Notes: generated by a model from the letters alone, not told the origin. A stretch of DNA of 64,000 bases from Escherichia coli (GCF_003790525.1 NZ_CP033633.1); one strand, 5' to 3'; counted from the stretch's first letter, positions 28,350-40,055 are shown. Program-made: numbers and translations.

Positions 28350-28690
28350 GGATGTCGCCGGCGGCTCCGCTTTACCCGGCCATGCGGGGCATGGCCTTGT
28401 GGGTTTTCAACTCTGTAGCCTCAGCGTCGTGTGCGGGCTGTGCCGTGCCTCCATCGTAGCCGGGCTTCTGCGGGCGGGTTGCAAGGTAAGGTGAACCGCT
28501 GCGGTCACCCGGTCCCTCCTTCCCGTCTGCCGTGATTTTCCGGTCGTTCACCCGCTCAGATTTCGCGGTCTCACCCTCCAACTCCCGTCAGCCGTGTGCG
28601 TCAGGCTGCGGCTTCCCTTGCGCCCTTGCAACCCTGCAGGCCCGGCAAAGATGGAGGCACGGCACCGCCCGGTGTCGCGGAATATGTGAA
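28350..28690. promoter_or_regulatory. Structured GC-rich repeat, family B copy 1 (candidate ssi/Frpo-like single-strand promoter)
   Basis: About 340 bp near-identical to 35303-35647; immediately upstream of klcA. Confidence 0.5.
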
Positions 28691-28707
28691 CAACGGAGGA
28701 AAACATC

Positions 28708-29133
28708 ATGCAATATGCGAAACCTGTCACTCTGAATGTTGAAGAGTGCGACCGTCTCTCCTTTCTGCCTTACCTGTTTGGCAACGATTTTCTGTATGCC
28801 GAGGCGTATGTGTACGCGCTGGCGCAAAAAATGATGCCGGAATATCAGGGAGGCTTCTGGCACTTCATCCGCCTGCCGGACGGTGGCGGTTACATGATGC
28901 CGGATGGCGACCGTTTCCACATGGTGAACGGTGCAAACTGGTTTGACCGTACCGTGAGTGCTGATGCCTGCGGCATCATTCTGACTTCCCTTGTGATTAA
29001 CCGCCAGTTGTGGCTGTACCACGACAGCGGGGATGCGGGACTGACACACCTTTACCGGATGCGCGATGCGCAGTTGTGGAGCCACATCGAATTTCACCCC
29101 GAATGCAATGCGATTTACGCGGCACTGGACTGA
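28708..29133 (+). CDS. klcA: KlcA/ArdB-type antirestriction protein
   Basis: 141 aa; LSFLPYLFG...[16 protein letters not shown] resembles KlcA/ArdB. Confidence 0.8.
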
Positions 29134-29179
29134 TTAACGGACGGGGCGGCGATGCCGCCCCTGTAAAGGAGACGAGAAC

Positions 29180-29599
29180 ATGTACTGTACTGTTAAAGAA
29201 ATTATCCGCGAAGTGCTGGATACAGACGTGCCGGACAGTGAATGCGTTTTTGCTGTGGTGCTGACCCGTGGGGATGTACGTCACATAGCCCAGGACTGGA
29301 GTCTGACAGACGATGAGCTGGAAACCGTCATGCAGCGGCTGGACGATGCCTTTGAGCATGGTGCTGATGTCAGCATTGTTCACGACGTTGTTCGTGAACT
29401 GATGGAGGAAAAGCGCGTAAACCGTCTTGTAACAGTCCCTGCGGTGCTGCTGGAAAAAGTGATGGTGATGGCTGGTAGTGAAATTTATCGCCTCCATGCT
29501 GTAGGGAGCGAGAACGGGGGCGACGGTGACGCATTTGTCAGGGAAGAACGTGAGATTATGCGGTTGATGCGTCAGGCGCTGGACGGGGAGAACGGGTAA
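29180..29599 (+). CDS. Leading-region hypothetical protein
   Basis: 139 aa acidic protein; no family recognised. Confidence 0.4.
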   Translation: MYCTVKEIIREVLDTDVPDSECVFAVVLTRGDVRHIAQDWSLTDDELETVMQRLDDAFEHGADVSIVHDVVRELMEEKRVNRLVTVPAVLLEKVMVMAGSEIYRLHAVGSENGGDGDAFVREEREIMRLMRQALDGENG

Positions 29600-29790
29600 T
29601 GAATATCAGCACAGAAACCCGCGAAATTCTGCGCAATTACAAAGCCGTGATTAATGCACGACGTCGTGAGATGGGGCAGAAACCGCTCACCACCGCGCAG
29701 ATTGTTGATGAAATCTGCGATTTTGTGGCAAATCAGCAGGCTGTTTTCCTCGGCGGTCACTACATCCTTCAGGGCAGCAGAAACAGGTGA
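29599..29790 (+). CDS. Small hypothetical protein
   Basis: 63-aa ORF whose start overlaps the preceding stop; weak. Confidence 0.3.
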   Translation: MNISTETREILRNYKAVINARRREMGQKPLTTAQIVDEICDFVANQQAVFLGGHYILQGSRNR

Positions 29791-29989
29791 TACAGGGCAG
29801 GCGGTGGAGGCCGCCTGTCAGCCCGCGCGAAAACCCCTGGCAGGCTGACGCCTGCCGGAAACGCGGGGTGCAGCGCCTGCGGCGCTGCCGGCCCGGCTTT
29901 CCGGTCAGAAGGTAGTGTATGGCTGTATGCCAGGAACAGGTGTGATATTCCGTGACGCTGTCACCGTTTCTGGCTGTTTTTTGTTGCGC

Positions 29990-30500
29990 CCACTTCGGCT
30001 CCCGGCTGCCTGGCGGCATCCGGTCGTCAGGCCCGACTCCGACAGGCAGCTGCTGGCGCACCCGCCAGTCTCCGCCGAACCCGCTGGCGCGGTTTCGGGC
30101 TGTCGCTACGGTCCGATGCGTGAAAACCCGGGCTTGCAGCGACCGTTCCGGTCGCGCCGCCTCTGTCGCGCCGTGACCTGCGCTCCCTGCACACCTGACG
30201 GTGTGTGAGGAAACTGCGCCTGATGGCGCAGCAGTCTTCCCTCCTGCCGCCACCTCTGCGGCCTGTTTCCCGCTGTGGACTTTCCGGGGGGCAGACGTAA
30301 CCCCCTCCCGTTCCATCTGTCCAGGGTGAGATGCACCGGCCACAAAATTTTTAGCCATGAACCCGGCTAAAAATTTTGCGTCCGCCCCCGGACAGCTGTC
30401 CCGTGAGGCGGTAAACGGGCCCCCATCGGAAAGGTCCACTGCGGGGAGAAACCCCTGTGAAGTGGACGGCAGGAGGAGCTTTCGCTCCTCTGAAGGGGCA
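29990..30500. promoter_or_regulatory. Structured GC-rich repeat, family A copy 1 (candidate ssi/Frpo-like single-strand promoter)
   Basis: About 500 bp repeated at 36343-36848 and partly at 39725-40055; upstream of ssb. Confidence 0.5.
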
Positions 30501-30559
30501 CATGAACGTCCCGTCGCCGGTATCCGGTTTATCTCACATCTTTCAGTCAGGAGGTTCTT

Positions 30560-31087
30560 ATGAGTGCACGTGGTATCAACAAGGTCATCCTCGTCGGGCG
30601 TCTGGGCAATGATCCGGAAGTCCGTTACATCCCCAACGGGGGCGCAGTGGCAAACCTGCAGGTGGCCACGTCAGAAAGCTGGCGCGACAAACAGACGGGG
30701 GAGATGCGGGAGCAGACGGAATGGCACCGCGTGGTGCTGTTCGGCAAGCTCGCGGAAGTGGCAGGTGAATATCTGCGCAAGGGCGCGCAGGTCTACATCG
30801 AGGGGCAACTCCGTACCCGTAGCTGGGAAGATAACGGTATCACCCGTTACGTCACTGAAATTCTTGTTAAGACCACGGGCACCATGCAGATGCTGGGGAG
30901 TGCACCACAGCAGAACGCTCAGGCGCAACCGAAGCCTCAGCAGAATGGGCAGCCACAGAGTGCTGACGCGACGAAAAAAGGTGGCGCGAAAACGAAAGGC
31001 CGTGGACGTAAGGCCGCGCAGCCCGAGTCTCAGCCGCAACCGCCGGAGGGGGAGGATTACGGGTTTTCAGACGATATCCCGTTCTGA
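30560..31087 (+). CDS. ssb: Plasmid single-stranded DNA-binding protein
   Basis: OB-fold N-terminus [18 protein letters not shown], Gln/Pro-rich linker, acidic C-terminal DDIPF tail. Confidence 0.95.
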
Positions 31088-31138
31088 CTGGCCTGACTGT
31101 GATAACCGCCCCGCCCTGCGCGGGGCATCACCGGAGAT

Positions 31139-38777: not shown

Positions 38778-38951
38778 ATGACGATTGCAGAACGTCTTGA
38801 GCAAAAAGGTCGCCAGGAGGGCAGGATGGAAGGTGCGCTTGAAAAAGCCCTGGCTATTGCGTGCCAGCTTCAGAAAATGGGGATGACGCCGGAGCAGATT
38901 AAGCAGGCTACCGGACTGTCCGAAGCTGAACTGAAAAAAATCATTCACTGA
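38778..38951 (+). CDS. Stand-alone Rpn C-terminal-domain small protein (RpnS-like), copy 1
   Basis: 57 aa MTIAERLEQKGRQEGRMEG...TGLSEAELKKIIH; paralogous to the C-terminus of the Rpn gene. Confidence 0.5.
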   Translation: MTIAERLEQKGRQEGRMEGALEKALAIACQLQKMGMTPEQIKQATGLSEAELKKIIH

Positions 38952-38965
38952 TGAGAGCATCACAG

Positions 38966-38990
38966 CCCGGAAGAATGCCGGGCTTTTTTG
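38966..38990. terminator. Rho-independent terminator after RpnS-like copy 1
   Basis: AGCCCGGAAGAATGCCGGGCT followed by TTTTTT. Confidence 0.6.
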
Positions 38991-39009
38991 CCAGCAGGGG
39001 CAGAGCAGT

Positions 39010-39240
39010 ATGACTATTGCAGAACGTCTTATACAGAAAGGTTTCGACGAAGGTTTTAAAGAAAGTTTTAAAGAAAGTTTTAAAGAAGGCTTTAAAGAAG
39101 GCTTTAAAGAAGGGGCGCTTGAAGTGGCGCGGGAAATAGCCTGCCGGCTGCGGGATATAGGCTGGCCGCCGGAACGGATTCAGGAGGTCACGGGACTTTC
39201 CGGTGAAGAACTGAAAAAGCTGTTTCCTGATGAGCAGTAG
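39010..39240 (+). CDS. Stand-alone Rpn C-terminal-domain small protein (RpnS-like), copy 2
   Basis: 76 aa MTIAERLIQKG...(FKES/FKEG x5)...TGLSGEELKKLF; contains its own 12-bp tandem array at about 39050-39112. Confidence 0.5.
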   Translation: MTIAERLIQKGFDEGFKESFKESFKEGFKEGFKEGALEVAREIACRLRDIGWPPERIQEVTGLSGEELKKLFPDEQ

Positions 39241-39270
39241 CCTGGCATTCAGCCAGGCTGTGAATCATGC

Positions 39271-39522
39271 TCACACATCCTCTGCCGTTTCCCCCAGTTC
39301 ATTTTCCAGACGCCTGATGATATCTGCCTTACGCATCCCCTGCATGTGAGGCAGCAGGTCACGGACTGAAAGAGCCTGGGTGGTCCTCCAGACGGTGACG
39401 TCCACCTGTTCCGCATTTTCCCAGGCGTGCCATGTTCTCTGCGTCACGCCAAATTCTCTGGCCGCTTTTTCGCGTGACCAGAGCATGCTTTTTCGCCAGA
39501 TTCGCAGTTCCCAGCCGGTCAT
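39271..39522 (-). CDS. Small helix-turn-helix regulator (hypothetical)
   Basis: 83 aa; HTH-like segment AAREFGVTQRTWHAWEN. Confidence 0.45.
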   Translation of the reverse strand: MTGWELRIWRKSMLWSREKAAREFGVTQRTWHAWENAEQVDVTVWRTTQALSVRDLLPHMQGMRKADIIRRLENELGETAEDV

Positions 39523-39536
39523 AAAACACCTTTGAA

Positions 39537-39625
39537 AAAGTGAAAAAACTTCACTTTATTTTATCACCATAATTGCCAAATCAGCGCGATAAATAAGTGT
39601 GAAAAAAGTGAAGAAATTTCACTTT
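39537..39625. promoter_or_regulatory. Two 21-bp palindromic operator-like sites flanking a promoter
   Basis: AAAGTGAA-N5-TTCACTTT at 39537-39557 and 39605-39625, about 68 bp apart, upstream of the HTH gene. Confidence 0.45.
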
Positions 39626-39724
39626 TTTTGGTTGCAGATGTCGTGCGGTTTTCTCTGTTTTCACCTGTGCGGGAGTGGTGCGCCAGTGACCACAGCATGC
39701 CGTTGTTGTGCCGTCGGTTTTCTC

Positions 39725-40055
39725 CGGTCGCGCCGGATGCGGCGCTCCCTGCACACCTGACGGTGTGTAAGGCCACTGCGCCTGATGGCGCAGCTGTCTC
39801 TGCCTGTCTGCCGCCGCACTGCGGCCCGTTCTCCGCAGACGAACTTTCCGGGGGTACATACACGACCACATCCCGTTTCAGTCGTCCAGGGGAGAGATGT
39901 ACCAGCCACAAAACTTTTTGCCGCAGGCGTCAAAAACTTTTGCGTCTGCCCCCGGACAACTGCCCCGTGACGTGGTGAGCGTCCCCCGTCGGAAAGGTCC
40001 ACTGCGGGGAAATCCCCGAAGACCCGGACGGCAGAAGGAGCTTCGCTCCTCCGGG
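39725..40055. promoter_or_regulatory. Structured GC-rich repeat, family A copy 3 (shorter)
   Basis: Shares the 3' roughly 330 bp of family A; upstream of ORF 40100. Confidence 0.5.

Follow-up and report, generated by a model that had tools for sequence, protein, structure and literature searches.

Structured repeats ahead of leading-region genes in an Escherichia coli I-complex plasmid as probable single-stranded-DNA promoters

Introduction

What are the GC-rich, structured repeats that stand directly ahead of antirestriction, ssb and other genes in a 64,000-nucleotide stretch of Escherichia coli DNA (GCF_003790525.1, NZ_CP033633.1)? An earlier note on this stretch (called the window below, and always meant at its full length) had pointed out five copies of two repeat families, family B ahead of the antirestriction genes klcA and ardA, and family A ahead of ssb and of the open reading frames (ORFs) at 36895 and 40100. 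It had proposed that all five are promoters of the ssi (single-strand initiation)/Frpo kind, which fold in the transferred strand and drive early expression of establishment and anti-defence genes after conjugation.

Our analysis leads to the conclusion that the five repeats are very probably single-stranded-DNA promoters of an I-complex conjugative plasmid. In the window itself we find homology to known elements, a defined strand polarity, stable folds, covariation and box-like motifs. The elements that are now called class 1 (Frpo1, which is ssiD, Frpo2, and ssi1-3) were reportedly described by Masai and Arai in 1997, Bates et al. in 1999 and Nasim et al. in 2004. Neither family is new, and nor is the pairing of family B with klcA and ardA. 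Class 1 goes back to 1997-1999 and class 2 to 2025, and members of both have been characterised and tested in close relatives of this plasmid, as is apparent from Wen et al. (NAR 2025, PMC12672017), a 2026 preprint (10.64898/2026.01.09.698686) and Samuel et al. (2024).

Results

Two families of repeats

The five copies are the following; all are given on the minus strand, and their designation as promoters is putative.

28348-28700, minus strand: B1, family B (class 2 or ssp2-type), upstream of klcA; main hairpin 28430-28671
29993-30490, minus strand: A1, family A (class 1, ssi3 orthologue), upstream of ssb; ssi-equivalent core 30164-30494, arms at about 30240-30476
35302-35655, minus strand: B2, family B (class 2), upstream of ardA; main hairpin 35385-35627
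36346-36841, minus strand: A2, family A (class 1, ssi2 orthologue), upstream of ORF 36895; core 36519-36844, arms at about 36626-36827
39724-40076, minus strand: A3, family A (class 1, ssi1 orthologue), upstream of the DUF4942 gene; core 39727-40053, arms at about 39844-40038

A repeat finder and self-BLAST located these copies, and their number, their division into two families and the genes that follow them are as the earlier note had described. B1 and B2 are 92.1% identical over 355 nucleotides (nt), A1 and A2 87% over 499 nt, and the shorter A3 is 86% identical to A2 over 357 nt and 79% to A1 over 331 nt. A1 and A2 have an upstream extension of about 170 nt that consists of small hairpins (29993-30164 and 36346-36518, respectively), which A3 is without. 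BLAST and one nhmmer profile per family (E-values on the window copies of 1e-95 to 1e-108 for family B and of 1e-80 to 1e-82 for family A) revealed no further full copy in the 64 kb, and neither method produced a match between the two families. The copies are indeed GC-rich, with 64-67% G+C, compared with 56% for the region 26000-41500 and 52% for the whole window. Each ends 7-70 nt ahead of a plus-strand start codon (24-70 nt in the case of A1, A2 and A3), and a ribosome-binding site and start codon lie directly downstream of every copy.

The transferred strand

IncK2/Z plasmids such as pE32-3 (MOBP, MPF_I) share 99% identity with the repeat region, whose gene order is that of the ColIb-P9 and pESBL leading regions, except for an absent methylase block. 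This comparison identifies the window as the leading region of a conjugative IncK2/Z (I-complex) plasmid of E. coli. The origin of transfer was recognised by reading the sequence and by an ATCCTG match:

41507-41562, minus strand: oriT core, inverted repeat GGTAATCGTATA...TATACGATTAC, then ACATCCTG/TCCC; predicted nick between 41514 and 41513 of the minus strand

An inverted repeat followed by the nick region is the arrangement of IncP and IncI1 origins of transfer. Since the nick region of IncP/IncI type is found on the minus strand, the minus strand should be the transferred strand, and because the nick is predicted near 41513, the sequence from 41513 downwards would enter the recipient first, with its 5' end leading. 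The ColIb-P9 ssi sequences (record AJ238399), as tabulated in Samuel et al. 2024, have the sense of the minus strand of the window and are equal to it, and the genes behind all repeats are on the plus strand, with the minus strand as their template.

Relationship to known elements

Wen et al. (2025) distinguish three classes of promoters, namely class 1 with ssi1-3 and Frpo, class 2 with the klcA and ardA hairpins, and class 3 with the M.EcoGIX hairpin. For family A, we took the reference ssi/Frpo sequences from supplementary table 2 of Samuel et al. A1 is 99% identical to the pESBL element upstream of ssb (the equivalent of ColIb-P9 ssi3), A2 90% to the pESBL ssi2 equivalent, and A3 99% to the pESBL ssi1 equivalent. 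These alignments make family A the orthologue of ColIb-P9 ssi1-3, of F Frpo and of the class 1 promoters of pESBL. The class 1 elements of ColIb-P9 and pESBL occupy the same three positions (before ssb, before the ORF after ardA, and before the DUF4942 gene), they fold into the same long hairpin, in which TTG(T/C)GG comes after an A/T-rich apex, and a core is common to family A and its relatives in F, Serratia, Salmonella and an insect metagenome. We see no substantive difference between class 1 and family A, only the extension of A1 and A2 and the identity of A1-A3 to F Frpo1 and Frpo2, which amounts to about 51-54% outside the conserved core.

Family B stands apart. B1 and B2 are 86-92% identical to the klcA and ardA elements of pESBL and ColIb-P9 and to the element upstream of yfgB in F, and B1 is 89% identical to F ssp2, the name given to the F copy in the 2026 preprint. 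The class 2 elements of pESBL precede the same two genes and form the same hairpin, and they share with family B the invariant GCCCGGCTA...GGCACGGC arm and, on the non-template arm, the TTGCAx and TAxxxT hexamers. Judged by these comparisons, the orthologues of family B are the class 2 (ssp2) single-strand promoters, and family B is a separate class that is not homologous to Frpo/ssi. Samuel et al. (2024) list a family B relative from an insect metagenome as candidate 'Frpo' 4'. The ssi/Frpo label of the earlier note therefore fits family A, and for family B it has to give way to class 2. The note had singled out that family B precedes two antirestriction genes unrelated to each other, and this pairing does exist in the window; Wen et al. 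(2025) already state it explicitly, and they also remark on the resemblance of the klcA and ardA hairpins.

Folding and covariation

When the minus strand of each copy is folded as DNA, it forms one long imperfect hairpin. Compared with shuffled sequences, the z-scores of the DNA folds are -5.7 for B1 and -3.0 for B2, and -9.8, -9.2 and -6.5 for A1, A2 and A3, respectively. The family B stems have a GC-rich arm of about 20 bp, with one mismatch in B1; in A1, the A/T-rich apex is at 30344-30377.

Covariation was assessed in alignments of the window copies, their orthologues and divergent relatives (Serratia, Salmonella, insect metagenome; table of Samuel et al.). In family B, 95% of the cells are paired and 22 pairs have changed on both sides; none of 500 shuffles reaches this, and sliding the partners leaves 32-41% paired. 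In family A, 88% of the cells are paired and 23 pairs have changed on both sides. Here, no shuffle out of 500 comes up to the alignment on four of the five measures, 15 out of 500 do so on the count of further pair types, and slid partners are 42-53% paired. Moreover, in each of the 22 sequences the transferred strand gives a more stable fold than its complement does, with a margin of 2.8 to 20.3 kcal/mol, the advantage in family A being 13-17 kcal/mol. Folds, covariation and strand asymmetry are all in agreement with the mechanism that the earlier note had proposed.

The covariation also bears on the idea that the repeats code for proteins, for example from the 'DUF1472' ORFs, or are selfish or miniature mobile DNA without a regulatory role. 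Some GenBank records do annotate DUF1472 proteins across family B, and RefSeq has a 165-residue hypothetical protein on the minus strand across A2. RefSeq has no annotation over family B, and the substitutions between copies take the form of compensatory pairs and do not follow a codon pattern. The plus-strand ORFs over the two family B copies of the window (28306-28494 over B1 and 35272-35742 over B2), together with one GenBank 'DUF1472' coding sequence (CDS), have no current Pfam match, so that the earlier description of ORFs inside the repeats as spurious appears reasonable. It also speaks against this idea that the repeats have a single orientation and are placed, each just before a leading-region gene, in thousands of plasmids. 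We give this explanation next to no credence.

We considered DUF1472 as a real family over family B and found it unsupported, as the CDS in CP048936.1 (L006:675-914), like the window ORF, lacks a current Pfam match. In the same record, two overlapping 'DUF1472 domain-containing protein' CDSs run across the class 2 element (L006:487-914).

The strand asymmetry is relevant to another explanation, according to which the repeats act as RNA (5' leaders, terminators or small RNAs) made from ordinary promoters, with the DNA hairpin being incidental. The sequences would fold as RNA too, and terminator-like hairpins are present at the upstream edges of A1 and A2. Yet the plus strand, which has the sense of the RNA, folds worse than the minus strand in every one of the 22 sequences. 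At gathering thresholds, Rfam has no match within the repeats, and a conventional linear sigma-70 promoter with a 16-18 nt spacer is found on neither strand of B1 or A1, the copies that were scanned. For pESBL, Wen et al. (2025) report that start sites determined by 5' rapid amplification of cDNA ends (5' RACE) fall inside the predicted single-stranded-DNA promoters. With the start site inside the stem, as predicted, only one arm of the hairpin would be part of the mRNA. Taken together, this makes a role at the RNA level very improbable.

Candidate promoter motifs

In the hairpin of family B, the gene-distal arm provides the non-template strand. Moving away from the loop, this arm contains, one after the other, TTGCA(A/T), TA(A/C)(G/A)(A/G)T and GGAGGCACGGCAC; none of the ten family B sequences departs from the motif GCCCGGCTA. 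In B1, the hexamers are TTGCAA (28484-28479) and TACGAT (28458-28453), in B2 they are TTGCAT (35439-35434) and TACGAT (35413-35408), with a spacer of 20 nt in both cases. The predicted start sites, at about 28659 for B1 and 35615 for B2, are 48-49 nt ahead of the klcA and ardA start codons. Mismatches lie opposite three bases of the -10-like hexamer in the family B elements of ColIb-P9, F and pESBL.

The two copies of the window differ from the characterised class 2 elements in where the stem bulges. In ColIb-P9, F, pESBL and the insect relative, the non-template arm has 15 nt between the hexamers and the template arm 19 nt, with the extra 5 nt looping out on the template side. In B1 and B2, by contrast, the spacing is 20 nt on the non-template arm and 15 nt on the template arm, and the loop is on the non-template side. 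When compared with ColIb-P9, F and pESBL, both window copies (28425-28500 and 35380-35445) show one and the same insertion of 5 nt and deletion of 4 nt. At least 1,396 PLSDB plasmids match across the variant region, and by this count the loop-swapped class 2 variant is common among plasmids. Short segments have been swapped between klcA-type and ardA-type copies, and both copies of one plasmid share the loop form, which suggests gene conversion between the two class 2 copies of one plasmid. An inversion of the whole hairpin interior was considered as the origin of the variant and rejected; the interior is collinear with that of ColIb-P9, and the short stretch that separates the hexamers is the only part to differ.

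The candidate that is conserved in family A consists of the A/T-rich apex, TTG(T/C)GG, 16-17 nt, and TGGAC(N). In A1, TTGTGG (30345-30340) and TGGACA (30323-30318) are on the non-template arm, and the start site is predicted at about 30400. Inspection by eye, with either the 5' arm or the 3' arm taken as the template, gave no box assignment with a good -10 that is conserved across F, IncI, Serratia, Salmonella and insect sequences. The TTGACG in the 5' region of F-type elements was tried as a family A box and discarded, as it is not conserved in the IncI copies.

Several of these observations weigh against the promoter interpretation. A convincing -10 was not found in family A, where the second base of TGGAC(N) is not the A that is usual for a -10 hexamer. 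In family B, the non-template spacing of 20 nt in B1 and B2, as opposed to 15 nt in ColIb-P9, F, pESBL and the insect sequences, means that activity of the variant is not guaranteed. The difference in energy between the strands is small for B1 and B2, about 3 kcal/mol. Finally, covariation of an inverted repeat fits either strand, so that strand specificity rests on the energy asymmetry and on the orientation of the genes.

An absent methylase operon

The M.EcoGIX-type methylase operon of pESBL and the hairpin upstream of it, about 2.5 kb (L007:4398-7010), are absent from the window. What has been retained are the first 69 nt after the DUF1281 stop codon (28303-28373), which are followed directly by B1. 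This remnant matches the upstream border of the methylase-proximal hairpin of pESBL, probably the class 3 element (M.EcoGIX in pESBL, ssp3 in F); the element itself is absent, and none of the five repeats belongs to class 3. The deletion junction is inside a motif of about 29 nt (AAAGGATGTCGCCG...GCTCC) that is common to the upstream borders of class 3 and class 2. Because of this shared motif, the methylase operon was probably lost by recombination between short repeats.

In pESBL, the region upstream of the methylase forms a large hairpin in the transferred strand (z=-7.0). Plasmid annotations place a 'hypothetical protein' between DUF1281 and the methylase (pESBL L007:4394-4705, ColIb-P9 L003:23491-23802, F L002:4785-5090). 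The region is GC-rich and highly conserved in pESBL, ColIb-P9 and F, and it is probably a non-coding single-strand promoter and not a gene. We count seven structured elements in pESBL, compared with six promoters in the part of the text of Wen et al. (2025) on which we rely.

A sixth hairpin upstream of DUF1281

The earlier note was right about five copies and missed a divergent hairpin just outside the segment that it described:

27181-27345, minus strand: B0, divergent family-B-like hairpin of 165 nt, upstream of DUF1281, found with nhmmer and DNA folding

The family B profile that includes the insect relatives matches 27154-27342 on the minus strand (E=5.3e-7), and the DNA fold of B0 has a z-score of -5.0. 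Its non-template arm contains TTGCAT (27221-27216), a 15-nt spacer and TAACGT (27200-27195), and then the GGCACGGCC stem. The DUF1281 gene starts with an ATG at 27376 or 27400, and the start site predicted for B0, at about 27338, is about 38 nt ahead of the one at 27376. B0 is 98% identical in F, ColIb-P9 and pESBL, and it occurs in about 4,800 PLSDB plasmids, once per record and beside DUF1281. We tentatively raise the possibility, which we consider rather unlikely, that B0 is an additional single-strand promoter and a distant relative of class 2, one that would come on top of those reported for pESBL. B0 is not identifiable with any of the six promoters that the consulted part of the text of Wen et al. 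(2025) names.

If B0 were a promoter, class 2 would widen to a family whose hallmarks are TTGCAx-N15-TAxxxT and, on the template arm, an asymmetric loop. B1 and B2, with their swapped loop, would in that case offer a natural test of the way in which the distance between -35 and -10 is measured by RNA polymerase on a folded single strand.

Genes and other features of the region

The genes behind the repeats are all on the plus strand. NCBIfam has no match for KlcA, ArdA, ORF 36895, DUF4942, DUF1380 or DUF1281, and we therefore use Pfam and RefSeq names; those of the klcA region are based on the RefSeq annotation of the 99% identical pE32-3.

28708-29133, plus strand: klcA/ardB-type antirestriction gene, first behind B1 (Pfam Antirestrict PF03230, E=1e-25)
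29180-29599, plus strand: DUF1380 gene, 3' of klcA
29599-29790, plus strand: small ORF after the DUF1380 gene
29828-29867, plus strand: terminator-like hairpin GGCAGGC-N4-GCCTGCC, past the end of the klcA operon and ahead of A1, identified as a direct repeat and by folding
30560-31087, plus strand: plasmid ssb, head of its operon (NCBIfam NF010292, E=2e-116)
35663-36163, plus strand: ardA antirestriction gene (Pfam ArdA PF07275, E=2.7e-29)
36206-36245: second copy of the terminator-like hairpin, after ardA
36895-37329, plus strand: ORF 36895, behind A2, without a function by annotation and without a Pfam family; 'PndC' in one RefSeq record
40100-40951, plus strand: DUF4942 gene, behind A3, the leading-region gene closest to oriT, named from the annotation of near-identical plasmids

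The ssb operon has the order ssb, DUF905, a ParB-like gene, psiB and psiA. The series of class 2 element, antirestriction gene, GGCAGGC-N4-GCCTGCC hairpin and class 1 element occurs twice in the window.

Elsewhere, a DinI-like ORF on the minus strand (26734-27042), part of a DinI-like/umuDC operon, has a perfect LexA-box-like palindrome, CTGTATATACATACAG, at its 5' end (27006-27021). In and just past an Rpn-family ORF, the segment 38478-39218 contains eight 12-nt tandem repeats of the CAGGGAATACAG type (38494-38621) and longer direct repeats of 236-296 nt. Rfam matches at other places of the window (15485-15601, 45905-45991, 48527-48613 and 51839-51996) are to two ALIL pseudoknots, which are frameshift signals of IS3 type, a group II intron domain, and the STAXI RNA, which is on the minus strand.

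Discussion

Together, our data suggest how the repeats could work. Coming in 5' first from the nick, the minus strand would reach the recipient single-stranded, and each repeat would fold into its long imperfect hairpin before the complementary strand is made. The hairpin stem would mimic a double-stranded sigma-70 promoter. RNA polymerase would then use the gene-proximal (5') arm as its template, and transcription would leave the hairpin at its base and run into the plus-strand genes. Family B would drive klcA and ardA in this manner, and family A the ssb-psiB-psiA operon, ORF 36895 and the DUF4942 gene. As synthesis of the complementary strand removes the hairpins, the promoters would be switched off, making expression early and transient.

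The corresponding activities have been demonstrated for the orthologues, with respect to start sites and early induction (PMC12672017) as well as stalling (10.64898/2026.01.09.698686). For pESBL, Wen et al. (2025) describe six leading-region operons whose expression rises by as much as about 500-fold in the first 15 min after transfer; they predict a hairpin promoter for each operon and map start sites in recipients by RNA-seq and 5' RACE. For class 1 orthologues in F (Couturier et al. 2023) and pESBL, it has been shown that transcription begins on the single strand in the recipient and ceases once the DNA has become double-stranded. By analogy, the same promoter activities can be expected in the plasmid of the window. 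The earlier note had regarded every gene behind a repeat as an early-expressed establishment or anti-defence gene. Orthology with the six induced operons of pESBL speaks for the early expression, and for ORF 36895 and the DUF4942 gene, the function is something that we infer with reserve.

A different view of the hairpins would be that their primary role is in DNA synthesis, with family A priming the complementary strand and family B acting as a roadblock until it is removed by UvrD. Frpo RNA primes DNA polymerase III in vitro (reviewed by Virolle et al.), and the 2026 preprint reports rifampicin-sensitive early conversion at the ssp1/Frpo loci, a stalled 3' end at the end of the F ssp2 stem, and stalling of complementary-strand synthesis at ssp2 until UvrD removes the block. 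The high identity of B1 to F ssp2 and the GC-rich arm of the family B stems, with its single mismatch in B1, also speak for this view. However, this role does not exclude a promoter role. Frpo1 and Frpo2 are required in vivo (Couturier et al. 2023), and according to the same study and the 2026 preprint, downstream expression depends on the elements. Furthermore, a pure priming or stalling signal needs no adjoining start codon and ribosome-binding site, which every copy in the window has. Hence, we regard a primary role in DNA synthesis as possible and, on balance, doubtful. As an accompaniment to the promoter function that we favour, family A transcripts may, by orthology, also prime synthesis of the complementary strand, and family B hairpins may transiently stall it.

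Single-strand promoters allow antirestriction, SOS-inhibition and SSB genes to be expressed from the incoming strand before host defences act. Such elements are central to the spread of resistance plasmids, as is established for F, ColIb-P9 and pESBL, and the window represents another plasmid with orthologous copies in the expected places. What is added here is small, namely the sixth hairpin B0, the loop-swapped class 2 variant, the signs of gene conversion between the copies, and the absent methylase operon. B0 and the variant provide modest leads, and these two and the gene conversion are relevant mainly to groups that dissect how RNA polymerase recognises folded single-stranded promoters.

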